In this document: one piece after another, positions 3,598 to 34,521 of the stretch
Numbering within the stretch: position 1 is the stretch's first letter
How the letters are laid out: each line of letters opens with the position of its first letter
Source: a virus
DNA length: 47,121 nucleotides
Direction: 5' to 3' (one strand)
Virus record (IMG/VR): IMGVR_UViG_3300028840_004790
Program-made: the position numbers and the translations under genes
Notes under the pieces: generated by a model
The model's input: only the letters and a program-made list of their open reading frames with translations
The model's database searches: none
What the model was told of the DNA's origin: nothing

Positions 3598-6500
3598 ATG
3601 CCCGAAAACACCTTCCGAATCCCAGACCAGGAGTGGGACGCCCTCGTCCCGTCCTCCCCGATCGACAGTGGCCATTTCGTCATCCCGGACGCCGAGTGGA
3701 CCAACCTGACCAGTCCTCGGCTCGGCGGCGTCGAAGCCGAGGCTGAGGACCGGCTCAAAGCCCTACCCGTTGCTCCCCAAGACCTGACCATACCTGTCCA
3801 GCGCCTGGCCTCCGGTGCCATGGAAGGCGGCCACGAGGCTGTCGTGACCTACGCGAACCGGCTCGCGGCCGCGGGGTTCCCAGGTGCGCAGCGGCTCGCG
3901 GACTACCCCTACTCCGAGCAGATCCAGAAATCTGCGGTGAATGATTACTACGAATTCATGAACGGGATGGGGATCCTGGATGTGGACGGGCCCGGGGCGG
4001 CCGACGCCAAGCGGCGAATACGGAACTCATTCACCGCAATTACTACGGTAAAAAACCAGCCCCTGTTCGGCACGGACCGGGCCAAGATGGCCGGTGCGGT
4101 GGTCCGCAACCTCACCAAAGAGCGCGTGAGTCGGATCCTGGAAGAGGACGGCCCGATCGAGTCCAAGGAGCGGATCGCGGCCCTGGGCCAAATGGTCTCG
4201 CAGTGGTCCGACGACGAGCTCGACGACGTGTACAAGCTGGCCCGGTTCCTGGCGACCGAGACCCCGGTCAATGATTTCGACGCGGCGGTGTTCCGGCGCT
4301 TCACCGGCAACGAAACCCTCCCAGGCAAGACCGTCCTGGACGTGGGCATCAACATCGTCCAGCCCTACGTCACCGCAGCAACGACAAAGATCCCAACCGG
4401 ACAGAAGCTCGGAGTCCTGCAAGAGATCTTTGGCGACAACGCCCCGAGTGCAATCAACGCCGAGTTTGAGAAGCGAAAGGCCCGGTACGTTCTGGGCCAG
4501 CTCAATGTCGAGGTCCGGGAAGACGGCACCATGGGCGCCGGCCAGACCGCGGACGGGTACACGTTCATGCCGCTCGCGCCCAAGGGCGATCTCGATCTCC
4601 TCCTCAAGCTCAAGTCGGACCAGGAACCGATCAAGGAGATCCTGGACCGGTACCCTTCCCAACAGCCCACCTTTCTTGAAATCAAATCCCAGCACGGTGA
4701 GCCCGCGGCCCAGGACTACCTGCGCCAGGTCAACCAGCAAGGTCTCCAGTACATGGCCGAGCAGGTGGCCAAGGGTGTGGCGGTACCCGACGACGAGACC
4801 CTGGTACGGGGCATGACCCCGTTCGAGCGGAAAAAGGCCGGGGTCTGGGCCGATGTCGGGGCCGTCATGGAGCGTATGGGCGACATGTGGAACACAGCCG
4901 TCCGCGGCACCCACGAGCTCGACAAGCGGATTAGCGCGATCCCTCAGGTCCAGGAGCTGATCAAGCTCAATGCCTGGGGCGCCACCGGAAACAAGGACAT
5001 CGCCAACCAGACCAAGACCATCACGGACCTGTTCAAGCTCCTGCCGACCCTTTACATGGAAGGCAAGGGCCTCGGGGACACGTTCACTCCCGAAGCCGTT
5101 CGGAGCTATCAGGAGTTTCTCAACGCCTCCCCGGAAGAGATGAAGGCCCTGATGGACGTGTCGAACGACCCGCTCCGGTTCTACCGCGAGTACCACAGTG
5201 AGTCCTTCAAGCAACTGGACGAAAGTTCCAGGATAATGAATGATATGATCACTGGAAAGCAAGAATTTCGGCCCGGCAAGTTCATGTGGGAACTCGCCTA
5301 TACCGTTATGGGCCAGGTCTGGCACGGGGCCGCCGAGCCCTTTGCCATGATCGCTGACGACCCGGCCCAGCTCCCGGTCTTCCTCGGAACCGGCCTGGCC
5401 GGCGAAAAGATCGCGGCCCGGGGCCGGGCGGCCATGGTGCGTGGTATCGATCAGATCACGTACGGCACCCGGATAAAAAACTCCTTGAACCAGATCTGGA
5501 CCCATGCCCCGGAACAGGCCAAGATCTTCCGGGATGCGATCAAGAAGTCGGTCGCACGGAACCCGGACCTGAGCTCTGCCGCCGCGGTGGCGGAAGAGGT
5601 GGTCAAGCAGGTGAACCGGACCGGGCACATTAAAGACGCGAAGGGTTTCTCCCGGGTACTGCTGGATGCTTGGCCGGACATCAAGAACGAGCTGGGCGCG
5701 GTCGGGCAGGCCATTACCGAGAGTAAGTTCCCGAAAGGCATCACCGAGCGCCTCCGGTTTGCCTGGCAGGCTTTAGGTGGGTCTCCGAAGGGCATCGACA
5801 AGAACCTGGCCATTTCCATCACCCAACAACCGCTCGACGACGCGGCCAACGCGATCCGGTCCATACTCGGCACCGGCCCGGAGGCCGAGGTGATGACGAA
5901 CAAGTACCTGGACTTCGTGTCGAAGCACGAGCGCCGGCCCCGCACTGAAGAGTTGGTGGACATGATGCCGGAGCAGTACGCGACCTTTGCGGGACTGATG
6001 CTGGCCGCCGAACGGGTCCCGCTCCAGAACTCTGTCATATCCCGGGCTGCCGCGGCGGTGTTCGGGTGGCGGGACACCAAGATACTCCAATCCTTGGTGG
6101 ACAGCGCCGACAACGAACTGGCCCGTACAGCCCAGTTCGCGGTCGACGATGTCATGCTCCAGCGCCGGTGGGGCGTGAAACGGCTCCGGAGCCAGGTCCT
6201 TACCAATGTGGCTACCAACCGAAAACGGAACGCGCTGAGAAGTACCGAACTGGCCAAGGCCATTGACGAGGCACACGGACTACCCAAGGACCCAACGGTA
6301 GACACCCGCATCAAACAACAGAAGCTGGAGCTCCAGCGGCTTGAGGCAGAGCAGGACCGGCTCTCCCGGCATTCGTTCCGAGAGAGTTGGGAGGGCCCCT
6401 CTGCCATGGTCTGGGCTGAGCTGGATGACGCAGCCGTGGAACTGATCCTGGACACGCACCCAGAGCTGTTCAGTGGCTTCTCCAAGGAGATCCTCTACGA

Positions 6501-9500: not shown

Positions 9501-10314
9501 CTTCACGGCATACGAGGAGGCCTGGCACGCCCCGCTCAACCCTCGGACCGGACGCCCGTTCCACTCACAGCAGCCGGCCACGGCCCTGATCCGGGCCGCC
9601 TCGGGTATCGGCCTGAAGGGTCAGGCGGCCGACGACGTTGGAAACCTGATCGGTGTTGGGCGTGGCCGGAAGTCGGTGCTGACCAAAGACGAGGACATTA
9701 TCCTTAACAACCTGTACAAGGTGAGCGGCCTGATGAACCCGGACCGTCCGGACTACCCTATCTACGGCCCCGACCGGGAGGTCCGCGAGCTTTACAACCG
9801 CGCCATCGACAGCTCCTTTTCGCCAGAGGAACGGGCCGAGGCCGAAAAACAACTCGACGAGAAATTGAAGGAGGAGATCACCGAGCGCCAGGGTCGCCTG
9901 GTAGTGAAGCGGACCCGGACCGAACGCGAGGTGGAGATGGAAAAACGCTCCATGGAAGAGAACGGGTGGCAGAACTTCATGGCCAAGCAACCGATCGTAC
10001 AACAGGTCCTGGCCTTCATCCTGAACGAGCAGGCCGGGGTCCACGACCGGCTCCTCCGCGAGCAGTCCAACATCATCAAGTTCACTGAACTGGGCAATGA
10101 CCGTGTCATCAACGACCCGGGCAAGGTCCAGGAAGCAATCGACCACCTCGAGAAGGCCATGGAGCGGCCCACTAACCAGCGGGTGCTGGAACTCCGCAAC
10201 TACCTTAAGGAGGTCGTACTTCCCATGTCCGAGGTGCGCCGCATGTTCGAGCCGTACCGACTTCAGTTACAAGACGCCCGGAAAGAAGCAATAAGGAGAA
10301 AGTTCGATGGTTGA
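3598..10314 (+). CDS. Giant 2,238-aa virion protein, putative internal/ejection protein
   Basis: Single uninterrupted ORF; mostly helical, charged sequence with no catalytic motif I can assign; follows three smaller putative internal proteins, as T7 gp14-16 do; antisense ORFs in this span look like GC-rich shadows. Confidence 0.7.
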   Translation: MPENTFRIPDQEWDALVPSSPIDSGHFVIPDAEWTNLTSPRLGGVEAEAEDRLKALPVAPQDLTIPVQRLASGAMEGGHEAVVTYANRLAAAGFPGAQRLADYPYSEQIQKSAVNDYYEFMNGMGILDVDGPGAADAKRRIRNSFTAITTVKNQPLFGTDRAKMAGAVVRNLTKERVSRILEEDGPIESKERIAALGQMVSQWSDDELDDVYKLARFLATETPVNDFDAAVFRRFTGNETLPGKTVLDVGINIVQPYVTAATTKIPTGQKLGVLQEIFGDNAPSAINAEFEKRKARYVLGQLNVEVREDGTMGAGQTADGYTFMPLAPKGDLDLLLKLKSDQEPIKEILDRYPSQQPTFLEIKSQHGEPAAQDYLRQVNQQGLQYMAEQVAKGVAVPDDETLVRGMTPFERKKAGVWADVGAVMERMGDMWNTAVRGTHELDKRISAIPQVQELIKLNAWGATGNKDIANQTKTITDLFKLLPTLYMEGKGLGDTFTPEAVRSYQEFLNASPEEMKALMDVSNDPLRFYREYHSESFKQLDESSRIMNDMITGKQEFRPGKFMWELAYTVMGQVWHGAAEPFAMIADDPAQLPVFLGTGLAGEKIAARGRAAMVRGIDQITYGTRIKNSLNQIWTHAPEQAKIFRDAIKKSVARNPDLSSAAAVAEEVVKQVNRTGHIKDAKGFSRVLLDAWPDIKNELGAVGQAITESKFPKGITERLRFAWQALGGSPKGIDKNLAISITQQPLDDAANAIRSILGTGPEAEVMTNKYLDFVSKHERRPRTEELVDMMPEQYATFAGLMLAAERVPLQNSVISRAAAAVFGWRDTKILQSLVDSADNELARTAQFAVDDVMLQRRWGVKRLRSQVLTNVATNRKRNALRSTELAKAIDEAHGLPKDPTVDTRIKQQKLELQRLEAEQDRLSRHSFRESWEGPSAMVWAELDDAAVELILDTHPELFSGFSKEILYDYKISKTGKPTIETAKRRAEGFRKRIFQLQEELNNVRKDPIGNDRVVADLHENLAEMQKQQAAYKAADGLEDPKLASDITVMRQYLANRLRHLRNREVRATREDVIMAEQDAVIADHRRAQARYTELANGIARPTISEEGKKMFQDLIRHRGATDAMRDDLTWMKQRLAAIEGERYAGSRGNPFHLKWLPAWKRGQHVADTVRSTMAREMDAGARIEELTAILRKLPDEQKRLLSLAQRRQVSPRDLMKRPMIARAFKHLANEDLDTLQLFFEEEQLGFDQLMDFLEKSGKLPPHVLKSWRKMGYDPRLDVADELSELIVEETARKAMGRGRVQSVLPTQPFLHARGRAFQFKRHHQLWRVRVNEPDLVLDETFLTRQQAEKFLKDRYGDDIIGTLDKHKGGLIGKNPYGDEVRLAPPLSAAEKEARGFFGSAGEESLRGEYGTKRAKMHTAARRLKRMSEVLKDVTASSLIDTYNMHGGYVLDKAQHALLQQKYGNSVTSRFHFVPENKRAFGNMAGKYVHKQILAELNRASKLYDSLNSVVAGMREAFQADVPDAIKPFTPGAVYKAFDWVADAARSSLITHSIRSHIVNPLFNIISDYLAGTRVYSSENLDNLLWAAKQAGPTGKGRLTRDPIFQEARRNNLVTGLFETEDDALRNLSLDVMGINKQNIAQVRNLMGKTKVLHEKYRQLLLKGEDPPLLLTVQKKLQALEAALAELDQSRLKIGFKKFVGLWVRNRDAFGRPRNKTARFMRRWYNFYDEFFKLAQYANLRRQGLSENQAVKVVKTFSQNYAEVPYWLRGIHPAVRGMVVSFPYELMRITGNAARYRPHRLVGLLATLPMFNMMQLAQAGVSWDRWDQMLEARGKRTPTQGLLSMMSSMYLIDPRTKNITSEVDLSGLLPFEDLVANGHGMIAQAMDNMMPPEKRDGLQHAAAVGGTIASNFLFNHPIYNIGQFFLSGTDPVTGRPLLSPGAPLLQKVQEGVKIAGKTFIPPWMPGGRDFTAYEEAWHAPLNPRTGRPFHSQQPATALIRAASGIGLKGQAADDVGNLIGVGRGRKSVLTKDEDIILNNLYKVSGLMNPDRPDYPIYGPDREVRELYNRAIDSSFSPEERAEAEKQLDEKLKEEITERQGRLVVKRTRTEREVEMEKRSMEENGWQNFMAKQPIVQQVLAFILNEQAGVHDRLLREQSNIIKFTELGNDRVINDPGKVQEAIDHLEKAMERPTNQRVLELRNYLKEVVLPMSEVRRMFEPYRLQLQDARKEAIRRKFDG

Positions 10315-11039: not shown

Positions 11040-12059
11040 TCAGTTTGCGACTCGTCGACTTTCCACAGCCTCAATGGCCCGCCGGGTAAACTTGATAATC
11101 AGCTCGGCCTCCCGGATCCCCATGTCGGGCCGGCACGGGAGAGTCACGAGCGGCGCCGGCGGAAAATTCCACGCAGTCGGGACGCCCCATTTCGCCAACT
11201 CCGCACGAACTTCGGCCACATCCCGTACTTCCACTTGAAAGAGATACGGTACCAACGGCTGACACCGAAAAGGGACCTCCCAATTCTGTCCAGCACGCGC
11301 CAGCTTCTGCCACGAAAGCCGAATCCCAGCCATGTAACGATCCGACACCTCCAACGCCTCAAGATTGAGCGCGGCCGCCACGTCTGTGAGATGCGTTTCT
11401 CGGCCAGGTACGCTTGGTTCAGTGCCTCCAAGTCTTGTGGGGTTAAACGCTGGAGAAAGTCCAGAAGAACACCAAGATTCAATCTCCCGGGCGTGTTCTG
11501 GGTCTTTACAAACCACGACCCCGCCTTCAGCGCCCGGCACAGGTTTCGTTGGATAGCAAGAGAGGACCGCAAAGTCGGCGGCAGGATCAGGCAGCCAAGA
11601 GTGACACGCGTCGTGAATATACCATTTCGGATAAGGTAAGCGATTCGCCACAAAGTAGCGGGAAGACATATCTTCATCTTCAATTGCCAGCCTCCGTCCT
11701 CCAATATCAGTTTTGACCACAATATCAGGCCGAGACCGCCAGTCCCGGTCCCAGCCCGTACACATCCCAGCATGTGAGATCGCATGCCGAATCCCGACAA
11801 AGGTCGCGTGCGTACAATCAATTGTCGGATAGTCCTCCGGCTCCTCCCCCAGCGCGTCATGGTAGCAAATCATATCCAGCACCGCCTGGAACCCACTCGT
11901 AGCCCGGGCCGCGAGCGCGATCCGGTCGGGCCCCACCTTTAGCTTCTCTGCTACAGCCTCTCTGAACCTCTCGCACATGGGCCCCGCGGTCAACCACCGG
12001 GAGGCCAAGACTTTGTCGAGGTACTTTCCCGTAAGTCGCGGTGGTTTATACAATTCCAT
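11040..12059 (-). CDS. DegT/DnrJ/EryC1/StrS-family PLP-dependent sugar aminotransferase
   Basis: N-terminal 'WLTAGPMCERFREAVAEKL' and 'SCYPTKPVPGAEGGVVV' (PLP-lysine plus GEGG-type motif); 339 aa. Confidence 0.8.
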   Translation of the reverse strand: MELYKPPRLTGKYLDKVLASRWLTAGPMCERFREAVAEKLKVGPDRIALAARATSGFQAVLDMICYHDALGEEPEDYPTIDCTHATFVGIRHAISHAGMCTGWDRDWRSRPDIVVKTDIGGRRLAIEDEDMSSRYFVANRLPYPKWYIHDACHSWLPDPAADFAVLSCYPTKPVPGAEGGVVVCKDPEHAREIESWCSSGLSPAFNPTRLGGTEPSVPGRETHLTDVAAALNLEALEVSDRYMAGIRLSWQKLARAGQNWEVPFRCQPLVPYLFQVEVRDVAEVRAELAKWGVPTAWNFPPAPLVTLPCRPDMGIREAELIIKFTRRAIEAVESRRVAN

Positions 12060-12282
12060 TACATCCTGCCTTTTTCATTCGACGCTGGAACCCTCGCTTA
12101 TGAAGGAGAGTCCGGTTAGTTTTGATAAACTCCACCGCGTGGAGGGCTTGTGCAATGTCCCAGTACGAGTAACGACCGTATCCTGGAACAATCAGATCCT
12201 CTTGTGCCATAAACCCCGTCCAGGTGGCCCTCACCTCGGCGGGATCCGGCTGGGTAAATATAATTGTTTTAGAGCGTTCCAT
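12046..12282 (-). CDS. Hypothetical small protein between the SDR and aminotransferase genes
   Basis: ORF 12046-12300; internal ATG 12282 (MERSKTIIF...) gives a short overlap with the SDR stop. Confidence 0.5.
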   Translation of the reverse strand: MERSKTIIFTQPDPAEVRATWTGFMAQEDLIVPGYGRYSYWDIAQALHAVEFIKTNRTLLHKRGFQRRMKKAGCNGIV

Positions 12283-13180
12283 CCTCATTCTTTTCCACAA
12301 ATCCGTACAGGGCCTTGAACTGATCGGCGCCGTCGTACACTCCGACCGAATGGATCAGGGTACTGAGCTCCAGGTTAATCTCCATCGGCTCGAACTCGCC
12401 CCACCCGTAGTCCCGGTTGTCAAGGTCCGGCGCGTTGTCGGGGACCACGATCTCAACAGGACTGTCTGGCTTCTTCATGGCGACCTTGAGCTGGACGAGC
12501 TGGGCAAACTCCTGAAGTGTGCCACATGTGTCGTAGTGGTTCGAAATGGTGCCGCGGGGGCCCTCCGAGAAAATGTCCCGCTCCAGGGCGTGGACGGCCT
12601 TACGCAGAGCCAGGACTGGTCGCCTTTTAGTTGGATGCGTAACGGTAATCTTTCCTTTGGTGACCGCGTCGATGGACATCCGATTGAGCAGGAGGTGTGC
12701 GCGAAAAGACTCTGCGTCGCCGGGATTCGGGACGCCGAACACTGTCCCGAACCGAAGAAGGGATCCACGGGCACCAAAGTCCCCGGCCGCGACAAGAGCT
12801 TGCTCGAGATATCGTTTAGACTCTGGGTATGCACCTTCAGCGAAGACGGAGAGTGACGAGACAGCGGTGTAAGGACAGCCTGTCCCGGAGAGAGCCACGG
12901 CGACCCTTCGAGCATTATTCCGAATAGCGATGGTGGTATTGATGCGCCCGGACGGGTCGTGTGCGTAGGCGCCGAGCCAGACGATATGGTCCGGGACGAT
13001 TTTGTCAATATACCGGACGACGTCTTTGGTTTTGAAAATTTTCTGGACTGCGGGTGTAGCAGGCGGCTGACCGTAAACACAAGGATCAACACGGAACAGC
13101 TCAATATCATCCCGGAAAGTAAACCGGCGGCATAAGGCGCGTCCAATGTAGCCCTCACTTCCCACTATCAGTAGTTTCAT
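12269..13180 (-). CDS. NAD-dependent epimerase/dehydratase (extended SDR) acting on nucleotide sugars
   Basis: Rossmann motif 'KLLIVGSEGYIGRAL' (GxxGxxG) and catalytic 'YPESK' (YxxxK); 303 aa. Confidence 0.8.
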   Translation of the reverse strand: MKLLIVGSEGYIGRALCRRFTFRDDIELFRVDPCVYGQPPATPAVQKIFKTKDVVRYIDKIVPDHIVWLGAYAHDPSGRINTTIAIRNNARRVAVALSGTGCPYTAVSSLSVFAEGAYPESKRYLEQALVAAGDFGARGSLLRFGTVFGVPNPGDAESFRAHLLLNRMSIDAVTKGKITVTHPTKRRPVLALRKAVHALERDIFSEGPRGTISNHYDTCGTLQEFAQLVQLKVAMKKPDSPVEIVVPDNAPDLDNRDYGWGEFEPMEINLELSTLIHSVGVYDGADQFKALYGFVEKNEDGTL

Positions 13181-13589
13181 TTTTCAATTCTCCACAGTAG
13201 CACTGCGCCGGCTTGTCCATCCCTAAATAGTCATGTTTCACTGTCGTTCCGCATATATGACAGTAATTTGAGGGAACCATCCCGTTAAAGTTAGGCCGGT
13301 CGTCCAGGTCCGGCCGGTTGTGAAACATCCGGTTCAGCATCATGAGACAGCACCCGGCGTGCCACAGGTGGGGCTTGCCACTCTCCGGGTCCATGTCCTC
13401 CCCATCCCAAAACGCCCACATGTGCCGCATGAGGGCCCCGAACAACCGGCTCGCCTCGATCCCCTCCATCCAATTGTACTTGGCGTACTTCTTGGCGCCG
13501 AAGGTCATGATCTCGCCAACTCCCATCAAGAAGGCCGGGTCCAGGAGCTCGAGCTGGATCTTATCTTGATCGTTCTTCTGACCGCTCAT
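13155..13589 (-). CDS. DUF5664-like (dATP/dGTP diphosphohydrolase N-terminal-like) domain protein with C-terminal Cys-rich tail
   Basis: 'NDQDKIQLELLDPAFLMGVGEIMTFGAKKYAKYNWMEG...ALMRHMWAFWDGEDMDPESGKPHLWHAGCCLMML' matches the D.gK..LLp..l..va.vl.fGa.KY...NW..G....A..RH......D.eSG..H family pattern as I remember it; tail 'YCHICG...CYCG'. Confidence 0.6.
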   Translation of the reverse strand: MSGQKNDQDKIQLELLDPAFLMGVGEIMTFGAKKYAKYNWMEGIEASRLFGALMRHMWAFWDGEDMDPESGKPHLWHAGCCLMMLNRMFHNRPDLDDRPNFNGMVPSNYCHICGTTVKHDYLGMDKPAQCYCGELKNETTDSGK

Positions 13590-13990
13590 CTATACTCCAA
13601 CTTCTCATAAAAATCTGGGTCGAACACCATACCAATAGCAGTCCGGAGACGGTTCCCGATCGTGCACTTGGTCCACTCCGACATCTGAGCGGGTCCGGGC
13701 TTCCATACCCGGAATGGGAGCTTGAAATGGCGCCGGGCCCACTCTAATTCTGCACACACCCCGTACGACAGGTAAGCGGTAGGAGTCCACACCGCCACCA
13801 GCCCGTCACAGCTGCCCATTTCCAAAAAGTCAATTTCCTGCTCCGCTAGAAGCGAGTGCTCCCCGACCTTGAGCGCCGGATCAAAATAATGAAATCCGCG
13901 CTCGGCCAGCTCATGGCGCATCTGCTGAACTATGGCTTTCTCGGACGGCCGGGCTCTGGTCATCGGAAATGATAGGTATATTTTGTACAT
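13586..13990 (-). CDS. Nucleoside 2-deoxyribosyltransferase-like / nucleotide N-glycosidase-like protein
   Basis: 'KIYLSFPM' (compare YLAGP.F) and 'DGLVAVWTPTAYLSYGVCAELEWA' (compare D.vva.ld....D.Gt.fElG.A). Confidence 0.5.
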   Translation of the reverse strand: MYKIYLSFPMTRARPSEKAIVQQMRHELAERGFHYFDPALKVGEHSLLAEQEIDFLEMGSCDGLVAVWTPTAYLSYGVCAELEWARRHFKLPFRVWKPGPAQMSEWTKCTIGNRLRTAIGMVFDPDFYEKLEYR

Positions 13991-14019
13991 GAGGGCAATT
14001 TACTCGCACAGTAAATAGC

Positions 14020-14050
14020 CCAGGCCGGGAAAGGAGCAGGCCCGGCCTGG
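14020..14050 (-). terminator. GC-rich hairpin between two minus-strand genes (terminator/attenuator candidate)
   Basis: CCAGGCCGGG (14020-14029) and CCCGGCCTGG (14041-14050) are perfect 10-bp complements with an 11-nt loop; only a weak T-tract (GCTATTTACTG) follows on the minus strand. Confidence 0.5.
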
Positions 14051-14062
14051 ACAGTGGGGCTT

Positions 14063-14389
14063 CTACTTCACGGGGCGGACACCGAGCCCGCCGACCACCT
14101 GGCCCCCGAACCGGACGGTCGGGTCGAAAAACGCCTCGAACTGCTTCCCGACCCAGTCGTCGGTGTTCTGCGACTGGAAGATCGAGGCCAGCACGCTGGC
14201 GTTCGTCTTGTTGAGGGGGAACCCCCGTTCCTCTTCCTCAAGGTGCAGGATGATCTTCCGATCTACCCCGCCCTTCTTCTTGTTCTCGAACTCCTGGATC
14301 TCGGAGCCCGTGATCGTGTAGACCTTGGGGGACTCCTGAAGGTCTTCCTTCTTGATCAGGGAACTGTAGGTATCGTTGATGTTCGGCAT
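14063..14389 (-). CDS. Hypothetical protein (108 aa)
   Basis: ATG preceded by GGAGG RBS; coherent sequence MPNINDTYSSLIKKEDL... Confidence 0.7.
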   Translation of the reverse strand: MPNINDTYSSLIKKEDLQESPKVYTITGSEIQEFENKKKGGVDRKIILHLEEEERGFPLNKTNASVLASIFQSQNTDDWVGKQFEAFFDPTVRFGGQVVGGLGVRPVK

Positions 14390-14666: not shown

Positions 14667-14734
14667 CTGTCCCCCAACAACATCGAGGCGATGAATAAAA
14701 CAGCAATGACTAAGAAAACCTCATCACTCATCAT
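14663..14734 (-). CDS. Micro-ORF, 23-aa hydrophobic peptide MMSDEVFLVIAVLFIASMLLGDR
   Basis: Fills the nuclease/next-gene gap exactly; both its start and its stop sit in ATGA overlaps (translational-coupling geometry). Confidence 0.35.
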   Translation of the reverse strand: MMSDEVFLVIAVLFIASMLLGDR

Positions 14735-15432
14735 CCTTCACCTCCCGGGCACCGCTTCCAGTACGGGCACCACCGCGGGGAACAGAGCCCGTGGTTTACA
14801 CTGGCGAGACGGTAAGCTGCCTCGTCGGTCCCCCGAGAGTCCATGGCCGCAAACTGGGCGTCGAGCCACCGCTTCCACCGCTTCAGGTAATAGTCCGGGT
14901 AGTGTGTCACGAATGTCCGGATCGGCCACACAGGGTTGTCCGGGATCTCGACGTAAGCAGCACTGTGAGCGCCCGTCTCGATCGCATACAAGGCCAGCTG
15001 GATCGACTCGTCGGCTTTCTTCTGGGACCATTTCGGCTTCTTAAACACTATCTTCCAGTCGACAACACACCGCCCAGGACGGTTCGACACGATCTCGTTC
15101 AGCTCGTTGGTGACCGGGGTAACCTTGGAAATGAGATCAATCTTGCCGCAATAGTACTTCTTGGCCCATTCCTCAATAGCCTCGGGATCGAGCCACGGGA
15201 AGACTTTCTCTTTAAGCCGTTCAATATTTGCTTCGAGGTTGGGTATGGCCTGGAGTGGAGGGCATATTTTCTTACCCAGTACGGTAGCAAGGGCGTCGTG
15301 GTAGATGTTGCCTTTCTCGAGGTACTCACTGGACGGCTCGGGGAGCTTGAGCACTCTCTTGTAATAGAACTGTCGCTCGCAGACGTCGAGGAACTGTTGG
15401 AGAGCTGTGGGGCTGTGTCTAACGGCGCCCAT
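14731..15432 (-). CDS. PD-(D/E)XK nuclease, Cas4/RecB-like exonuclease with Fe-S cysteines
   Basis: N-terminal Cys in 'LDVCERQFYY'; 'VVDWKIVFKK' (D..K core); 'QLALYA' (QxxxY); C-terminal 'CSPRWCPYWKRC' (CX3CX5C-type cluster). Confidence 0.8.
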   Translation of the reverse strand: MGAVRHSPTALQQFLDVCERQFYYKRVLKLPEPSSEYLEKGNIYHDALATVLGKKICPPLQAIPNLEANIERLKEKVFPWLDPEAIEEWAKKYYCGKIDLISKVTPVTNELNEIVSNRPGRCVVDWKIVFKKPKWSQKKADESIQLALYAIETGAHSAAYVEIPDNPVWPIRTFVTHYPDYYLKRWKRWLDAQFAAMDSRGTDEAAYRLASVNHGLCSPRWCPYWKRCPGGEG

Positions 15433-15773: not shown

Positions 15774-15802
15774 AGTATACCACCCTTTCTATATAATGTC
15801 AA
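15774..15802 (-). promoter_or_regulatory. Sigma70-type promoter TTGACA-17-TATACT
   Basis: The minus strand reads TTGACAttatatagaaagggtggTATACTgtagtATG; perfect -35, 17-nt spacer and near-consensus -10, directly after the polymerase stop. Confidence 0.65.
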
Positions 15803-17936
15803 GCGGTTTCCCGTCCAGGTCCGTCGCCTTCCCCCAACAGTCGAGCGGGCCCTCGATCTCGACGCCCGCGTGGGGGCCGAGTTCGGGGCAGACGTCGGAG
15901 AATGCGGTAAGCATACACTTGGCCAGAACTTGTTTGGTCCCTTCATAATAGCCTGGATCGTTATAGGTCTCCACTACAATCTCGTCGTGAACGACCAGGA
16001 CAGTCCGCAGCCCGGCCTTTTGGCACCGCCACAGCGCCTCCTTCAGCACCGCCGCAGCGAGCCCCTGGAAGCCGGTGTTGGCCACCTCAGTGAACCGGGC
16101 CTTCGAGCGCCGCAACCCGGTCGGGAGCTCGATCGACGGGAGCCGCTCGGCCGCGATCCCGACCGCCGCCACGTCCGGGTCGGGGTGATTCACCATGGCC
16201 CGGAGGACGTTCCAGTCGGTGATCCCGAGCTGCTGGGCCCACTCTCGCTTGCCCTTCCCGGACACCTGCCGAAGCGCGTAGTCCATGCCCTTCCGGAAGA
16301 AGTTCAGGTACGCCTGGATGTCCCAAAACTTGTCAAGAAACGCCGCACGCTTCTTTTTAGCTTCCTCCACCGTCCACGAGACACCATAGGTTGTATGAGC
16401 GTAATCTGCCAGTTTAGTCGGGCCGAGTCCGCCAGGCACGCCGAAATGTAGGACTTTTTGTCCCTGGCGCTCCTCCCCAGTAACATCTTCTGGTTGCTTG
16501 CCAAGCACGAGCGCAGCGCCTTCGCGGTGGATGTCGGCGTCGGTTTTCGTGAGGATGTCGTAGAGCGGGCCTCGGACATCACGATGAGCGAGGACTTCAG
16601 CCAGAGTGTACATTTCCATGGCTGAGTAATCTGCCCGAATAAACCGCTTACCAGGCCTCGGTACAAATAACGCACGGATACCAGCTCGTCTTTTAGGGAT
16701 GTTCTGGAGATTAGGGCGCCCGGCAGCCATTCGTCCACTCCGCGCACCAATAGTAAACCAGCGTGGAAAGACTTCATCACAACGACTGTACAGATCGAGA
16801 TAGGTGTTGATGACTTTTTGCAACTTTCCATATTTCAACCACTCCTGTAGGCGCTCCTCGGACTTCGGGAGCTTTTCGTGCCAGTAATCGTACTCTAAAG
16901 CGAGGGAGCCGTCCTTCCGCGTAGGGGTGTCTGTGTCGGCGAAGGGGGCGAGCAGGGCTTGGATGGCTTTCGTTTTGGTGTGGAAGGACGGCTCCGCTTT
17001 TTCCACAAACTTTCCTTTACGGGTCACCTTAAACCGCTGAAGCATATTGTCCTGATAAGTCCACGTTGTAGACTTCCGATCCAGTGACAGGGCAGGGCTT
17101 CGCGTTGTAGTATTTGGCTTGGCCTTCCACTGCCCCAGCCCGATCTCCACCATCCTGTGTTGGAGAGGGAGCATCTCCTTTTTGAACTCGTCAAGGAGCT
17201 TGCCAGCGAGGGGCCGGTTCACGGCAACCCCCCGCTTGTCCATCTCGTGGATCGCCAGGGCCGCCTTCACCTGGAGGTTCTCAGACAGGAGGTGTTTGGC
17301 ACCGAGCTCCTCGTAGAGCTCCATGAGCTTGACGAAGATGTCATAGGTGGCCTCCGCGTCCTGCTTGGCGTAGTCAATGAACTCCCGCGGGAGGGCCGCG
17401 ATCGGTTGGCCCAGGAACTGGCCGTACCCCAACCGGATATGTGGGTTCTTATCCAACTCCCGCCCGAGGTACCGTTGGGCCAGGGCGTCGAGGGAGCTCC
17501 CGGGCCGGGACCTGGAGTGCAGGGGGTAGGGCGCCCACTTCTTGGTGGTTGGGTTGTAGTGTGGCTCATCGAACTGGCCGGTGGCGATCCTGTACAGGAG
17601 GTCCAAGTACATGGTGTCGTGCAGGCGGCCCTCTTCGACGGCTCGCTCGACCAGGGACCAGTCCAGGCCGGCGGCCCGGAGGACGTCGAGGTCGAAGGCC
17701 AGGTTGTGAGCGACCAGGTGCATGTCCGGATTTGATAGGAGATCCTTGATCCAGCGCACGTACTCGTAGGTCGGCGCCACATCGGCACCTTTACCGTCCG
17801 CCACTGAACCAAGCACCAACTTCGGCGTCTCGTACGGCGACGTGTTCACCGCCCGCCCGGACTTCGAGGTGATCGAGGTCCGGTCAGGGATCAGGGTTGT
17901 CTCGGTGTCGAAGGCGACGACGTTACTAAAGTCCAT
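15789..17936 (-). CDS. Family A DNA polymerase with 3'-5' exonuclease domain
   Basis: Exo motifs 'AFDTETT', 'HNLAFDLDVL', 'YAKQDAEATYDIF'; pol motif A 'RADYSAMEMYTLA', motif B 'RQGQKVLHFGVPGGLG', motif C 'LVVHDEIVVE'. Confidence 0.95.
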   Translation of the reverse strand: MDFSNVVAFDTETTLIPDRTSITSKSGRAVNTSPYETPKLVLGSVADGKGADVAPTYEYVRWIKDLLSNPDMHLVAHNLAFDLDVLRAAGLDWSLVERAVEEGRLHDTMYLDLLYRIATGQFDEPHYNPTTKKWAPYPLHSRSRPGSSLDALAQRYLGRELDKNPHIRLGYGQFLGQPIAALPREFIDYAKQDAEATYDIFVKLMELYEELGAKHLLSENLQVKAALAIHEMDKRGVAVNRPLAGKLLDEFKKEMLPLQHRMVEIGLGQWKAKPNTTTRSPALSLDRKSTTWTYQDNMLQRFKVTRKGKFVEKAEPSFHTKTKAIQALLAPFADTDTPTRKDGSLALEYDYWHEKLPKSEERLQEWLKYGKLQKVINTYLDLYSRCDEVFPRWFTIGARSGRMAAGRPNLQNIPKRRAGIRALFVPRPGKRFIRADYSAMEMYTLAEVLAHRDVRGPLYDILTKTDADIHREGAALVLGKQPEDVTGEERQGQKVLHFGVPGGLGPTKLADYAHTTYGVSWTVEEAKKKRAAFLDKFWDIQAYLNFFRKGMDYALRQVSGKGKREWAQQLGITDWNVLRAMVNHPDPDVAAVGIAAERLPSIELPTGLRRSKARFTEVANTGFQGLAAAVLKEALWRCQKAGLRTVLVVHDEIVVETYNDPGYYEGTKQVLAKCMLTAFSDVCPELGPHAGVEIEGPLDCWGKATDLDGKPLDII

Positions 17937-23694: not shown

Positions 23695-24390
23695 TTACCT
23701 CACAAATTGTACCGAACTCTTGACCGCGGCGCCCTTTGCCTTCAGGCCCACGATCACGCCCTTGGGATCCAGCCAGCGGGCGTCATGGGTGTCTCCGTCG
23801 ATCACGGGCACATGTCCGTGTTCCATTTCGAGTCCGGGTGGTACGTCGTGGAATACCATGGCGACGGTTCCTCCCCACCGTAGTATAGCGCTCAAATGCC
23901 TTGAACTACTTGGACTGGCAGAAAAGGTCAAATGATAGTTCTTTGGGAAAACAGAAGTTCTGCGCCATTCTTGGTATCTCACTAACCCTTTGGTGTAATC
24001 GTAAAACTGTACGTCAGGGTGTTCGGTGAACAGATCCGGAGCGATACGTTCCCACCTCAGATCCGACAGGCCGTTCAGGCGTACCGCAACGGGTTTGCCC
24101 AGTCGCTTTCCCTTGCGTTCCAGGACCGTGATATCCTTGTGCAGCTGGGCAACGAACCCGGCCCTGTCGTTCTTGAACCATTCCGTACGACGCACCCTTG
24201 CGGCCCTGGCACTGTCGAACTTGAGGCGCCCGGACGTATTCAGGCATGTTGCCTCACACCCATCCGCATACGGACAGGTATTCATGCACCCTGACTCCTT
24301 GTGCGGCGCCAGGAACAGTACCGCAGTAAGGTAGCCTGTGCCCTTGTTGGTCTTGGCGATCTTCGCGCTGGATTCACTTAGTAGCTTCAT
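23695..24390 (-). CDS. GP88-family (mycobacteriophage gene 88-like) protein, function unknown
   Basis: 'KLLSESSAKIAKTNKGTGYLTAVLFLAPHKESGCMNTCPYADGCEATCLNTSGRLKF...ARVRRTEWF' follows the family N-terminal pattern as I recall it; start at the second Met behind GGGAGGT. Confidence 0.6.
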   Translation of the reverse strand: MKLLSESSAKIAKTNKGTGYLTAVLFLAPHKESGCMNTCPYADGCEATCLNTSGRLKFDSARAARVRRTEWFKNDRAGFVAQLHKDITVLERKGKRLGKPVAVRLNGLSDLRWERIAPDLFTEHPDVQFYDYTKGLVRYQEWRRTSVFPKNYHLTFSASPSSSRHLSAILRWGGTVAMVFHDVPPGLEMEHGHVPVIDGDTHDARWLDPKGVIVGLKAKGAAVKSSVQFVR

Positions 24391-24515
24391 AGTACCTCCC
24401 ATATTGAGTCATAGCCATAGAACACACGCCGCGCAGCCATGATAGCCATGCGGTGCGACAGGCCGTCCTGGCGCAGGGCCCAGTACACGAGACAGGCAGC
24501 CATGGTATGCTTCAT
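24387..24515 (-). CDS. Hypothetical small protein (42 aa) MKHTMAACLVYWALRQDGLSHRMAIMAARRVFYGYDSIWEVL
   Basis: GGAGCAAACT-ATG RBS; its stop forms an ATGA overlap with the next gene; first gene after the promoter. Confidence 0.5.
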   Translation of the reverse strand: MKHTMAACLVYWALRQDGLSHRMAIMAARRVFYGYDSIWEVL

Positions 24516-31111: not shown

Positions 31112-31722
31112 GGAAGGTTTCAGTTGACGAGTTCATAAAATCTTTTGGGTGCTCGTTCGAGCCACAGGACCATCACTTTACGGGACCCCCTCAGTTCCAC
31201 CAGCCTGAAGGGCACGGTTCGGTGTTTCACGACGAGGGCAAGGTCCTGGCCAATCTGGCTTTCATGCAGGGCTCGGCTGTAGAGATCGGCACTGATCAGG
31301 CCGTCTCCACACGGTATATTGCCGAAGGGCTCCGGCGCGGAAACGACATCGACGGCGCCACCTTGGCCAGCACGGTCTACACAATTGACTGTCTCCAGCG
31401 TTGGAAAGACCACCCGGAATGGCCTGAGATCTGGGCCCTTTCGGCCAAGGCCGAGGACATGCCGATCGGGCACTGGAAGTGCAACTGGGCCTTCATTGAC
31501 GGTGACCATAGCTACGAGGGGGCCGCGAAGGACATCAAACAGATCCGGGACGAGACCCGGATCGATATCATGTTGTTCCACGACTGCGGCAAGGCCGTCC
31601 AAGGCCAGGAGTTCGACCCGGGTCAGTTCATAGACGTGCGCCGGGCAGTACTAAACCACTTGGGAGACTGGAAGCTGACCGAGATCGACACGAAGCTGGG
31701 GATGATTTATGCAGAACGTTGA
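31108..31722 (+). CDS. Class I SAM-dependent methyltransferase (Methyltransf_24-like)
   Basis: GTGA overlap start; motif I 'AVEIGTDQAVST' and 'FIDGDHSYEGAAKDI'. Confidence 0.65.
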   Translation: MRKVSVDEFIKSFGCSFEPQDHHFTGPPQFHQPEGHGSVFHDEGKVLANLAFMQGSAVEIGTDQAVSTRYIAEGLRRGNDIDGATLASTVYTIDCLQRWKDHPEWPEIWALSAKAEDMPIGHWKCNWAFIDGDHSYEGAAKDIKQIRDETRIDIMLFHDCGKAVQGQEFDPGQFIDVRRAVLNHLGDWKLTEIDTKLGMIYAER

Positions 31723-32422
31723 CCTCGGCGTGATGATCCTGGTCCACAAGCGCCCGTGGCCGCTCCGGCTGATCGTGGAACAGATCAGTGAGGCCTGGCC
31801 CAATAGCATTATTCAGCTGACAGAGGACCGGTGCGAGTTGGACATCGCCTCGATCTTGGATGGTACTGAGGGCGCTGTTAGTCAAAGGGCTCCGTTTCCC
31901 GTCGTCGACGAGAACGGCGAGCACTTTATGGTCATGCGCCAGTGGCAGCTCGAACAGATCCGTAAGTACAATCCCAAGTACATTGGCTTCTGGGACGACG
32001 ACCACCTCCTGGAGGACCCGGACGAAGTGAAGCAGTACATGACCATGGGCGCCGACATCATCGACATGAAGAAGGCGTTCTTTTGGGACGACTTGGAACA
32101 CACAAACGAAAGGATCCCACCGCATGTCTCGCCTGTCTTTTTTAAGGACCGCCCTGGTACGTCCTTCCCGGACACCGAAAGTCGGATCATACACTGCCCA
32201 GTGGGAATCCATGACGACCCTGCCTCCGTGCGCGTGGTCACAAATAGCCGGCTCCTCGACGTCGGATACCTCGACGCCGCCGAGCGGGCCCGAGTCTGGG
32301 CAGCCTACAAAGAAGCAGGAAAAATAGACGCCGCGACCATGGCGCTGGTGGAGGACCCCCAGCTGGTGAAATTTGAGTCGGAGATGCCGGCCTACAAGCA
32401 GTTACTGAACGGTAAAAAATGA
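31709..32422 (+). CDS. GT-A fold (family 2-like) glycosyltransferase candidate
   Basis: 'LGVMILVHKRPWPLRLIVEQI' N-terminal strand-helix and 'IGFWDDDH' DxD-type motif. Confidence 0.5.
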   Translation: MQNVDLGVMILVHKRPWPLRLIVEQISEAWPNSIIQLTEDRCELDIASILDGTEGAVSQRAPFPVVDENGEHFMVMRQWQLEQIRKYNPKYIGFWDDDHLLEDPDEVKQYMTMGADIIDMKKAFFWDDLEHTNERIPPHVSPVFFKDRPGTSFPDTESRIIHCPVGIHDDPASVRVVTNSRLLDVGYLDAAERARVWAAYKEAGKIDAATMALVEDPQLVKFESEMPAYKQLLNGKK

Positions 32423-34521
32423 GTCTTTCAAGACAGAATCCGCTCGATTTGAGCACGCTCGGGAACATGGGCGGTGAGTCCATTTTGATCCAGGTCAAGG
32501 ACCTGGACCGGCGCATCAAGCAGGCCGCCTCGGCCCGACACACCTGGATGCATAAGCAGGAGAAGCTGTTCCGTCAAAGACTCGGGATCCGGCGCAAGAA
32601 AGTGTTCCCCTGGCCAGGGGCCAACAACCACAACTGGCCCCTGGTCGATAAAGTGATCCGCCGGTGGAAACCGTCCATGGCCGCGCTCATTACCCAGTCC
32701 GATCCGGTGGCCCACTTTTTCCCACTCAACACCGCGGGGGTCCGGGCCAAGGACGACGTCGAGGCGTACTATCACTACAAGTTCAATTCGATCGAGAACG
32801 TCGAGGACACCGTTATGGAGCTCCTCGAGTACGTGGCCCAGCACGGCAAGGGCTATACGATCCAGGGCTGGAACTATCAGACCGAGCGCCAATGCCGGAT
32901 CATTTTCGCTCGGTCCCTGTTCCCGCAAGGTGTCGAGGCCGCGGTGGAGCAGTTTAACGCCCGGGTTGAGCAGGCCCGCACTGAAGCCCAGCAGGCCATT
33001 GACGCGGGACAGGCGCCCGCGAACGCGTTGGACCAGATCCCGGCACCGACAACCCCCGAACAATTCGTCATGGACACGCTCCAGGACGAATATAACCTTC
33101 GACAAGACAACCCTTTAGAGTACGACCAGATCGTCCAAGTCACCGAGAAGATCCTGGCCGGGGCCGAGAAAGTCAAGATCTACTACCGGATCGTGCGGCA
33201 CGACAAGCTGTCCTGGGTTGCTGTCAGCCCCCTGGACGCGATCGAGCCGCCCCGGAATCAGAAAGTGGACGACGCCGAGTACATTGCCTTCCGTCACCGG
33301 TTCAGCGCCGATGACCTGATGAAAATGGCCGTCGACGGGCACTTCATCCCACAAGCGGTCGCCGGCGTGGTAGAGAAGATGAAGTCCCGGGCCATGAGCG
33401 ACCCGGAACGGAACAACAACTTCGAGGGCCTGAGCGTTGGGAATCGGCTCAATATCACCACGGTCCTGGACCGATCGGACGGAATCGATAACGGTCGGGT
33501 CGAGGAGCCGAACCAGGACGACTTTCTCGAAGTGTACTGTAAGATCGATATCAACGGGGACGGTATCAAGGAACGGTGCCGGCTCTGGTACCATCCCGAT
33601 CTCCGCACCGAGCCGAGAGAGGGCTCCGATACAGGACCGTTCGGGGGGACTATTCTGGCTCTGTATGCGTTGCCGTTCTCGTTTTCCGAGTGGCCGGTGG
33701 TACGCCACGAGTTCGAGCACCGATCGAACCGCCCCTATGGTTCCCGCGGAATTGCAGAGCACCTTTCGGTCCACCAGGCGACAAAGAACAAGCTCCATAA
33801 TGCTCGGCTCGACGCCGGTCAGATCATGCTCTCACCGATGATGGCGATGCGCGTGACGGGCAACGAGATGAAGCGGAACATCAAGTACATGCCGGGCTCG
33901 ATCATCCCAGTTTCACAACCCGGCGATATCGCCCCGCTCACATTCGACACGTCCAATCTCTTGGCCTCGATCAACGAAGAAAACATCACGTCCCGAGACG
34001 CGGAGGAGTACATCGGGGTCTTCGACCCGGGTGTCCTGGCGGAAGGCACGGCCGAGCGCCGGACCGCCACCGAGGTCGACGCGATCATGCAGCAGACCCA
34101 GTCCATATTCGGCCAGGACGCGAGGCTGCTCCAGGCCAACATGAAAAAGGTCCACAAACAGCTGTGGCACCTCCTGCTTGATTTCGGCCCGGACGAGGAG
34201 TACTTCCGAGTGATCGGCGAAGACATGCCCCGGCTCATGAAGAAGCACGAGATTGCCCACGACTATGACATCGTCCCGGCGGGCACCCCGGCGAATACGT
34301 CCCGACAGCTGGCCATGGCCCGCGCCCGAGAGGCTCTGGGGGCGTTCCTGAACGACACATCGGGGCTGGTGAACAAACACGAACTCATCAAGTGGTACTT
34401 CAATACCCTTGACCGCAACATGGCCAAGCTCGTGGTGCGTACGCCGGAACAGGCCGCACTGATTCAACAAATGTTCCAGACTGTTGCCCAGTCCGGGCAG
34501 CAGCCTGCAAACCCTCCGTAG
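32419..34521 (+). CDS. Portal protein
   Basis: 700 aa; first large gene upstream of the scaffold/capsid pair; ATGA overlap with the upstream gene. Confidence 0.75.
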   Translation: MSLSRQNPLDLSTLGNMGGESILIQVKDLDRRIKQAASARHTWMHKQEKLFRQRLGIRRKKVFPWPGANNHNWPLVDKVIRRWKPSMAALITQSDPVAHFFPLNTAGVRAKDDVEAYYHYKFNSIENVEDTVMELLEYVAQHGKGYTIQGWNYQTERQCRIIFARSLFPQGVEAAVEQFNARVEQARTEAQQAIDAGQAPANALDQIPAPTTPEQFVMDTLQDEYNLRQDNPLEYDQIVQVTEKILAGAEKVKIYYRIVRHDKLSWVAVSPLDAIEPPRNQKVDDAEYIAFRHRFSADDLMKMAVDGHFIPQAVAGVVEKMKSRAMSDPERNNNFEGLSVGNRLNITTVLDRSDGIDNGRVEEPNQDDFLEVYCKIDINGDGIKERCRLWYHPDLRTEPREGSDTGPFGGTILALYALPFSFSEWPVVRHEFEHRSNRPYGSRGIAEHLSVHQATKNKLHNARLDAGQIMLSPMMAMRVTGNEMKRNIKYMPGSIIPVSQPGDIAPLTFDTSNLLASINEENITSRDAEEYIGVFDPGVLAEGTAERRTATEVDAIMQQTQSIFGQDARLLQANMKKVHKQLWHLLLDFGPDEEYFRVIGEDMPRLMKKHEIAHDYDIVPAGTPANTSRQLAMARAREALGAFLNDTSGLVNKHELIKWYFNTLDRNMAKLVVRTPEQAALIQQMFQTVAQSGQQPANPP

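Follow-up and report, generated by a model that had tools for sequence, protein, structure and literature searches.

The oxidation of a sugar nucleotide at C4 without dehydration has been described for Cj1427 of Campylobacter jejuni, which acts on GDP-glycero-manno-heptose and whose tightly bound NADH is recycled with alpha-ketoglutarate (PMC10680097). Among phages, virion glycosylation is established for mycobacteriophages according to a paper that cites this work (Freeman et al. 2023, as cited in PMC12619734). In PurZ0 phages, the nucleoside 2-deoxyribosyltransferase (NDT)-like protein DmtZ is a dAMP N-glycosidase and deoxyribose-5-phosphate transferase; the stand-alone DUF5664 protein of Arthrobacter phage Wayne is a Mn-dependent pyrophosphohydrolase that converts dATP, dGTP, and dUTP to the deoxynucleoside monophosphates (dNMPs), and the DmtZ and DUF5664 genes lie in a common nucleotide-metabolism cluster of phage Wayne (PMC12884076). 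The present study concerns the IMG/VR virus record IMGVR_UViG_3300028840_004790, a stretch of 47,121 nucleotides called the window throughout, in which five overlapping open reading frames (ORFs) occupy positions 11040-13990 of the minus strand. In order of transcription, they encode an NDT-like protein, a DUF5664 protein, an extended short-chain dehydrogenase/reductase (SDR), a small orphan protein, and a DegT-family aminotransferase dependent on pyridoxal phosphate (PLP), and the overlaps at their successive junctions are 4, 26, 14-32, and 14 nt.

With moderate confidence, we read this block as two adjacent and separable modules, one for sugar amination and one acting on the nucleotide pool, together with an inserted ORF. 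The sugar module probably represents a well-known kind of pathway in a divergent form restricted to phages, with an unusual, non-dehydrating first step. An earlier note on this DNA, made by reading the letters, had placed five consecutive overlapping genes here, and its coordinates were confirmed exactly; under the profile and structure searches that had been named beforehand as a check, four of its five domain assignments survived.

The SDR, which had been assigned from its GxxGxxG and YxxxK motifs, matched PF01370 (Epimerase) at 35.4 bits against a cut-off of 20.9. Its NAD motif reads GSEGYIG and its active site Y118-x3-K122, and both motifs are invariant in 22 homologues; the invariant positions are G7, G10, G13, D32, S109, Y118, and K122. 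With GxxGxxG and the Ser-Tyr-Lys triad, the protein belongs to the extended nucleotide-sugar SDRs, and the Asp suggests NAD rather than NADP as the predicted cofactor. The residues after the catalytic Ser set it apart from the 4,6-dehydratases of the RmlB/Gmd type: where these carry the acid/base pair of T-D-E (Asp-Glu) or T-x-E, the phage protein reads S109-L110-S111, S111 is at least 90% conserved, and neither position after the Ser holds an Asp or Glu in any of the 22 aligned sequences (22/22). A search of the PDB with the family profile gave Cj1427 as the best match (6vo6, 9e-17, profile positions 2-272), and the next match followed at 4e-8, a value that none of the dehydratases or epimerases surpassed. 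The structural model reached a predicted local distance difference test (pLDDT) score of 93.5; its top Foldseek matches were 6vo6 and 6vo8, both Cj1427, and all top matches were SDRs acting on nucleoside diphosphate (NDP)-sugars. Since S-L-S replaces T-D-E and Cj1427 is the best solved relative, we infer that C4 is oxidised without dehydration, and the SDR is likely to be an NAD-dependent nucleotide-sugar C4 dehydrogenase.

The phage SDR and Cj1427 (PDB 6VO6/6VO8) share GxxGYIG, YxxxK, RFxTxFG...R..L.N, and DxRDY, and both are without the dehydratase Asp/Glu. They differ in that their identity is only about 18-20%, that Cj1427 has T-N-S where the phage protein has S-L-S, and that in C. jejuni the 4-keto product goes to epimerases and reductases, with no aminotransferase (PMC10680097). 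A search of 5.8 billion proteins returned 20 relatives of the SDR, which, like those of DegT, are nameless metagenomic proteins.

These data bear directly on the classic 4,6-dideoxy route that the earlier note had put forward. According to that explanation, the SDR is a 4,6-dehydratase, or the host supplies a 3,4-ketoisomerase partner, and the product for the glycosyltransferases (GTs) is an NDP-4-amino-4,6-dideoxy or 3-amino-3,6-dideoxy sugar of the Qui4NFo, viosamine, or perosamine type. RmlB-type dehydratases do appear at similar Foldseek E-values, and SDR, DegT, and a formyltransferase together form the usual layout of 4,6-dideoxy amino-sugar pathways. However, Leu-Ser follows the catalytic Ser with no acidic residue in 22 sequences, the sequence profile favours Cj1427 over any dehydratase by nine orders of magnitude, and Polysacc_synt_2, the family of the PseB/PglF type, matched the SDR only at E 0.012, which is below its cut-off. 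We therefore consider a dehydratase route rather unlikely, and the earlier proposal was not supported in this form.

The DegT protein matched PF01041 at 51.3 bits, above the gathering score of 19.8, in agreement with its first assignment as a PLP aminotransferase. A Schiff-base lysine identifies a protein as an aminotransferase; the dehydratases ColD and E1 have a His in its place. In the phage protein this lysine is K172, located in SCYPTKPVPGAEGG (motif SCYPTK) and invariant in 29 homologues; D150 and H153 of the HDACHS motif and E178-G-G of the GAEGG loop are likewise invariant in these homologues, and the motifs align with those of ArnB. The family profile searched against the PDB gave ArnB (5e-21), then 6ewj, and then PseC, with the Mimivirus aminotransferase L136 (7MFO) among the matches; the nearest solved relatives, ArnB, PseC, and perosamine synthase, all belong to the sugar 4-aminotransferases. 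As the NCBIfam equivalog scores of 36.9 for PseC (cut-off 423.5), 23.5 for ArnB (631), and 21.2 for DesI (650) lie far under their cut-offs, DegT is no orthologue of any of the three; we predict from its residues and relatives that it acts as an NDP-4-keto-sugar 4-aminotransferase. Like the ArnB/PseC-type 4-aminotransferases, it has PF01041 and the S-x-x-x-K-x-x-x-G-E-G-G and (E/H)DA(A/C)H motifs, but the phage proteins are 40-60 residues shorter (300-340 aa against 375-395 aa), and the segment between the SSATA and HDACHS motifs is shortened. The giant-virus amino-sugar pathways to which Mimivirus L136 belongs are similar in that the virus encodes GTs and, in some cases, its own nucleotide-sugar tailoring enzymes.

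Members of the DegT family were found only on uncultured, phage-like contigs. The search of 5.8 billion proteins gave 58 relatives, all nameless metagenomic proteins of 230-375 aa, most of them about 300-340 aa and many on contigs of 40-49 kb. A scan of the GTDB species genomes with the DegT alignment gave no match, and thus neither a prophage nor a clue to the host, and scans of IMG/VR with DegT and DUF5664 returned nothing.

Eleven related loci were retrieved, of which ten are distinct (L004 duplicates L003), the closest being L011 at 62-64% identity; L013 is too fragmentary to judge for SDR-DegT. In 10 of the 11 metagenomic phage loci (L001-L008 and L011 by name), as in the window, the SDR and DegT genes lie next to or overlap each other; the exception is L012. 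One swappable amine-tailoring enzyme always joins the pair: a formyltransferase homologue directly between DUF5664 and SDR in L001, an S-adenosylmethionine (SAM)-dependent methyltransferase of a single family in L002, L005, L006, L007, and L008, a GNAT acetyltransferase in L012, and, at a distance of a few genes, a sulfotransferase in L003. Amino-sugar nucleotides are classically tailored by adding a formyl, methyl, or acetyl group to the amine. A third enzyme that changes from locus to locus is what one would expect if an amino sugar is N-tailored.

In the window, the corresponding candidate is a PseJ-like formyltransferase (Table 1). Its phmmer matches in the PDB began with the stand-alone enzyme PseJ (6ci2, 5e-17, residues 45-191), followed by dTDP-4-amino-4,6-dideoxyglucose formyltransferases and VioF, and all nine matches were sugar N-formyltransferases or uncharacterised homologues of them. 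Its INIH and IDNG motifs, with the Asn, His, and Asp, align with PseJ, and the Pfam family Formyl_trans_N scored just under its cut-off (25.5 against 26.1). This protein is likely the tailoring enzyme of the sugar module, as judged from its motifs and nearest solved relatives, although, unlike in the case of PseJ and VioF, its gene lies 13 kb away from those of its partners. The second tier of its matches is what would be expected if the SDR were a dehydratase after all, and the substrate of PseJ itself is a 4-amino-4,6-dideoxy sugar. The arrangement in L012 also fits a dehydratase route, since a host-made 4-keto-6-deoxy sugar can evidently serve where the phage has no SDR.

Two named pathways were considered and rejected. 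The gene order formyltransferase, SDR, DegT in L001 recalls ArnA-N, ArnA-C, and ArnB of the UDP-Ara4FN pathway, and ArnB is the best match of DegT; however, the SDR matches Cj1427 nine orders of magnitude better than it matches decarboxylases of the UXS/ArnA type, and the formyltransferase resembles PseJ and not ArnA. A complete pseudaminic-acid pathway was rejected because PseB, PseG, PseI, and PseF do not accompany the PseJ-like enzyme.

Returning to the non-dehydrating pathway that we prefer, the sugar module would work in three steps. The SDR would take an NDP-sugar made by the host and oxidise it at C4, forming the 4-keto sugar with no 4,6-dehydration; DegT would transaminate the ketone with glutamate and PLP, giving an NDP-4-amino-4-deoxy sugar that keeps its 6-hydroxyl; and the PseJ-like enzyme would N-formylate the amine. 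The product is thus likely to be an NDP-4-formamido-4-deoxy sugar and not a 4,6-dideoxy sugar, with the position of amination, the sugar, and the nucleotide carrier predicted from the enzyme families. The alpha-ketoglutarate freed by DegT may re-oxidise the NADH bound to the SDR in the manner of Cj1427. No nucleotidyltransferase of the phage was found, and therefore the NDP-sugar must come from the host.

The product would be handed to the GTs of the phage, and chiefly to the 859-aa GT2-TPR-GT1 protein, which we presume to be the main user of the amino sugar; the most probable acceptor would be a virion protein. Orthologues of this GT with 49-52% identity occur on the contigs of both relatives that were walked (L009:138-2732 and L010:1-2066). 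A further transferase of the glycan system may be the 237-aa protein, which matched L002:7361-8074 with 33% identity over 228 aa (BLASTP, E 2e-37) and L006:12795-13550 with 31%. Its family has an invariant DDD motif; it had no match in Pfam, and its best PDB profile matches were non-significant GT-A enzymes (SunS, E 0.23). In the window and in L006, the gene comes before that of the portal, but in L002 it stands beside the methyltransferase, SDR, and DegT genes, a shuffling of genes that ties the structural arm to the sugar genes. The proposal that SDR and DegT supply the phage GTs with an NDP-amino-sugar was thus strengthened by the PseJ-like formyltransferase of the same operon, by the alternative tailoring enzymes of the relatives, and by the GT found in two of them.

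The situation resembles the mycobacteriophages in that GTs are encoded in the structural region. To our knowledge, mycobacteriophages rely on host sugar nucleotides, whereas the phage of the window would add its own predicted set of oxidase, transaminase, and formyltransferase.

It is also conceivable, with a small probability, that the amino sugar is destined for a host target such as lipopolysaccharide, capsule, S-layer, or flagellin, where it would mask receptors or exclude superinfection during infection or lysogeny. The sugar genes lie, by gene order, in the early/middle replication operon and not in the late operon; an integrase gene is found a few genes downstream of the module in L002, L003, L008, and L013; and ArnB, the best PDB relative of DegT, is an enzyme of a lipid A-modifying pathway. 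On the other hand, the gene of the large GT immediately follows that of the capsid protein in the structural operon, in the relatives too, the window showed neither a membrane-embedded transferase or flippase nor a gene of the GtrABC type, and the window ORFs that were scanned included no integrase. We therefore favour a virion protein over a host glycan as the acceptor.

The second module consists of the NDT-like and DUF5664 genes. The NDT-like assignment of the earlier note stood only in part: PF05014 scored 18.1 bits, below its gathering score of 28.8, so that membership by Pfam failed, whereas the fold was recovered by modelling. The AlphaFold2 model built on the family alignment, which comprises 25 representatives among 1.8 billion clusters, reached a pLDDT of 94.6, and its top 25 Foldseek matches in the PDB were all nucleoside 2-deoxyribosyltransferases (TM 0.6-0.75). 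Matches in BFVD included many phage NDT-like proteins and a protein of Gordonia phage Ghobes. In the profile alignment, Y5, D54, and E81 fall on the catalytic residues Y7, D62, and E88 of the NDT from Chroococcidiopsis; across 25 homologues, E81 is invariant and D54 at least 90% conserved. Given the Foldseek matches, the aligned triad, and the invariance of E81, we take the modelled NDT fold and its Tyr/Asp/Glu active site to be real in spite of the sub-threshold Pfam score. Profile matches to PDB NDTs reached only E 0.016, with the CMP N-glycosidases MilB and BlsM among the matches at a marginal E of 0.02-0.1. The protein is predicted to be a nucleotide or nucleoside N-glycosidase or transferase. 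It gave no tblastn match in 50,697 phage records, and a metagenome scan with the NDT alignment produced 101 pattern matches, none of which was confirmed.

The DUF5664 assignment was borne out at 108.8 bits for PF18909 (cut-off 27; profile positions 4-99 of 99, aa 3-98) and 4e-39 for phrog_801. The Cys-rich tail was also confirmed: a CxxC...CxC motif occupies aa ~109-133 (about 13191-13265) and is conserved in L011. The protein thus differs from the two-domain diphosphohydrolase of phage SH-Ab 15497 (DUF5664 plus DUF550/MazZ), as its 45-aa tail is a Cys4 motif and PF18909 was the only domain found, with no MazG/DUF550 domain. By analogy with the characterised stand-alone protein, it is predicted to be a deoxynucleoside triphosphate (dNTP) pyrophosphohydrolase.

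The pair resembles DmtZ and DUF5664-1 of the PurZ0 phages Ghobes and Wayne, in which a stand-alone DUF5664 protein is likewise encoded beside or near a member of the NDT superfamily whose triad is Tyr/Asp(Asn)/Glu, and two predicted steps lead from dNTP through dNMP to base and deoxyribose-5-phosphate. It differs in that the window has no PurZ, DutZ, or DpoZ context, that its NDT-like family is separate and very small, and that its DUF5664 protein carries the additional Cys4 tail. In the second module, the DUF5664 protein would accordingly hydrolyse dNTPs to dNMPs, and the NDT-fold protein would cleave the nucleotide so formed or exchange its base.

The earlier note had also coupled these nucleotide-type genes functionally to the sugar genes, and the related loci speak against this. 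The NDT-like gene precedes DUF5664 in the window, L001, L007, and L012, but SDR-DegT occurs without the NDT-like gene in L002, L003, L005, L006, and L008 and moves without either nucleotide-type gene in L003, L006, and L008. L013 carries the NDT-like gene but lacks DUF5664, and DUF5664 itself is a generic accessory gene: the 1150 phage records that contain it span many unrelated types, among them phages of Cutibacterium, Mycobacterium, Arthrobacter, and Klebsiella. From the arrangements in L003, L006, L008, L012, and L013 and the generic occurrence of DUF5664, we conclude that the nucleotide and sugar modules are separable.

This separability also speaks against a single pathway like that of the hexopyranosyl-nucleoside antibiotics blasticidin, gougerotin, and mildiomycin, which we regard as very improbable. 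In such a pathway, the NDT-like protein would free a base, a GT would join it to an NDP-sugar, SDR and DegT would oxidise and aminate C4', and the amine would then be N-tailored. Those antibiotic pathways do combine an NDT-like hydrolase with C4' oxidation and transamination, the NDT profile matches MilB and BlsM, the order NDT, DUF5664, tailoring enzyme, SDR, DegT is the same in the window, L001, and L007, and DegT is present in every NDT-like context retrieved. Nevertheless, the MilB and BlsM matches are marginal, the NDT gene is missing beside SDR-DegT in five loci as listed above, the SDR has the full NDP-sugar-binding architecture, no benefit for the phage is apparent, and all the contexts come from one lineage.

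A further, more speculative possibility raised in the earlier note was that sugars or bases of nucleotides or DNA are modified. In one version, which we hold to be hardly probable, the DUF5664 and NDT-like pair depletes a canonical dNTP and a GT attaches the amino sugar to phage DNA. A broader version, in which all the genes serve sugar-decorated or non-canonical DNA, with the pair purging a canonical deoxynucleotide and a GT adding the formamido sugar to DNA or a nucleotide precursor, has only a slim chance; if true, it would be a so far undescribed kind of hypermodification route that lacks a hydroxymethylase. The idea draws on the base replacement that DUF5664 and an NDT-like enzyme serve in Z-genome phages (PMC12884076), on the hypermodification of phage DNA with diverse glycans by phage GTs, as cited by a later paper (Pyle et al. 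2024, as cited in PMC12619734), and on the location of the sugar module in the DNA replication operon.

However, Pfam and PHROG searches of the leftward-arm ORFs revealed no PurZ/PurA, dNMP hydroxymethylase, TET/JBP, DpdA, or dNMP kinase, and thus no base-synthesis enzyme of a base-replacement system, whether of the Z-genome type or another; a PurZ/Z-genome system was rejected because PurZ is absent. No DNA-GT signature was found, the 490-aa ORF and the GP88 protein of the same arm gave no relevant PDB match, DUF5664 is common in phages with ordinary DNA, and the GT lies in the capsid operon. The genome itself was informative as well. Six 6-bp palindromes, TCGCGA, CTGCAG, CACGTG, CGCGCG, GCGCGC, and AAGCTT, are absent although 6-11 copies of each were expected, which is restriction-site avoidance; CTAG is depleted (7 copies against 42 expected), and GATC is present in 388 copies against 268 expected (maximal-order Markov model, z about 11.5). 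Such avoidance argues, indirectly, against blanket hypermodification of the DNA, since modification would make it unnecessary. Nothing was found that points to sugar-modified DNA, and the DNA-modification proposal was not supported.

The small ORF between SDR and DegT had been listed in the earlier note as an unknown of 78 aa among the five genes, and a place for it in the pathway was not supported. It had no family match in Pfam, PHROGs, NCBIfam, or PADLOC and no BLAST match in any relative, and in L011 SDR and DegT overlap directly with no such ORF. Its GC content is 0.49 and that at third codon positions (GC3) 0.52, whereas its neighbours have 0.55-0.58 and 0.60-0.75. The slot before DegT holds an HNH-motif ORF in L002 (9721-10029), a LAGLIDADG-like ORF in L007 (~9670-10000), and, just upstream of DegT, an HNH-like ORF in L012 (~1810-2170); the Pfam scores of these homing-endonuclease-like ORFs are marginal at 20.7 and 21.1 bits. 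The junction ahead of DegT is an insertion hot spot for small ORFs, and the ORF of the window is probably a recent, lineage-specific insertion that plays no part in the sugar or the nucleotide module. As a conserved pathway subunit it was rejected, because no relative carries it, L011 lacks it, and its GC content is low.

Several observations weigh against the two-module interpretation with a non-dehydrating sugar pathway. The Foldseek ranking at the level of the fold fails to separate Cj1427 from TunA or RmlB, and the loop from the Ser to the Tyr of the SDR is about 12 residues shorter than in Cj1427, so that the two could differ in specificity and even in the type of reaction, with a 4-epimerase or 4-ketoreductase as alternatives. 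L012 has DegT without the SDR, the phage has no nucleotidyltransferase, and the substrate, product, and acceptor of the sugar module are all putative. The sugar genes are located in the replication/nucleotide operon, away from the GTs. Every NDT-like context retrieved also holds DegT, and all of them come from one lineage; a functional link between the two proteins may therefore exist. Finally, all the relatives represent one phage lineage, and the conserved gene order is partly inheritance and not independent evidence.

Table 1. Positions of the genes and elements of the window discussed in the text.
Feature	Position	Strand	Remarks
Short DegT-family PLP aminotransferase, 339 aa	11040-12059	-	PF01041; last gene of leftward operon
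Orphan ORF, 84 aa from TTG or 78-80 aa from ATGs	12046-12300	-	Fills SDR-DegT gap
Short extended SDR, 303 aa	12269-13180	-	PF01370
Stand-alone DUF5664 / dGTP_diPhyd_N protein, 144 aa	13155-13589	-	PF18909
NDT-superfamily protein, 134 aa	13586-13990	-	First gene of nucleotide-pool pair
Perfect 12-bp GC-rich hairpin	14018-14052	-	In 72-nt gap between 108-aa gene and NDT-like gene
108-aa protein of unknown function	14063-14389	-	phrog_21613 and phrog_11517
PD-(D/E)XK nuclease	14731-15432		Leftward arm
DNA polymerase A	15789-17936		Leftward arm
Predicted PseJ-like sugar N-formyltransferase, 197 aa	26081-26674	-	Proximal end of leftward arm, 13 kb upstream of SDR-DegT
237-aa protein	31709-32422	+	Just upstream of portal gene
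Portal, SU10-type	32419-34521	+	
Major capsid protein, SU10-type	36083-37018	+	
GT2-TPR-GT1 glycosyltransferase, 859 aa	37471-40050	+	Directly behind major capsid gene; Pfam Glycos_transf_2, TPR, Glycos_transf_1

The window behaves as the complete genome of an uncultured SU10-like podophage. In addition to the genes listed in Table 1, its plus strand encodes an adaptor, the large terminase, and a virion protein of 2,238 aa, and the leftward arm extends from ~26.9 kb to 11.0 kb and includes the formyltransferase-fold gene, GP88, a pentapeptide-repeat protein, and the 490-aa ORF. A DNA search of the window against the 50,697 phage records gave no match, and the identity of its capsid protein to any deposited phage is at most 37.5%. 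When the same collection was queried at the DNA and protein levels with the five-gene block, DegT, and the NDT-like protein, there were either no matches or remote ones only, and PADLOC gave zero matches for any of the proteins.

Upstream of the five-gene block, homologues of the 108-aa protein with 26-43% identity were found in the nine loci that cover the region (L001-L005, L007, L008, L012, and L013), in most of which the gene sits between the PD-(D/E)XK nuclease and the distal genes. The 86-nt region of the 12-bp hairpin folds with -29.9 kcal/mol as RNA (z = -2.4 against shuffles); no U tract follows the stem, and the terminator scan did not call it. It is possibly an attenuator or an RNA-stability element that sets off the distal block. 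A second hairpin of 7 bp follows at about 13998-14016. The GP88 protein is a Cys-rich protein of 235 aa at 23695-24402 on the minus strand (PF17338, 146 bits; phrog_1617, 216 bits), for which no PDB relative and no literature were found and whose function is not known.

Tyrosine integrase genes lie a few genes downstream of the distal block at L002:11047-11883, L003:7875-8723, L008:15296-16141, and L013:4316-5125. As several relatives thus carry an integrase and the scanned window ORFs gave none, the lineage appears to mix temperate and apparently non-temperate members. In L012, a 127-aa gene with an RF-1 domain (peptidyl-tRNA hydrolase/ArfB-like) is located at 3901-4284, two genes past DegT-GNAT.

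No current knowledge is overturned by the two-module interpretation. With the NDT-like and DUF5664 pair, a nucleotide-pool system that was not characterised until 2026 would reach beyond the Z-genome phages. If the interpretation is true, the Cj1427-type non-dehydrating C4 dehydrogenases would have in the SDR their first relative from a virus, and its pairing with a transaminase would be a redox-neutral amination, from hydroxyl to amine, that can be tested. SDR and DegT would represent two unusually small enzyme families, of about 300 aa each, for 4-amino sugars. The SU10-like podophage lineage would then go beyond borrowing sugar nucleotides from its hosts, by means of a compact plug-and-play cassette of an oxidase, a transaminase, and a single interchangeable enzyme for N-tailoring (formyl, methyl, acetyl, or sulfo). 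Such a cassette would diversify the sugar used by the capsid-linked GT and would be a clear case of phage glycan diversification.

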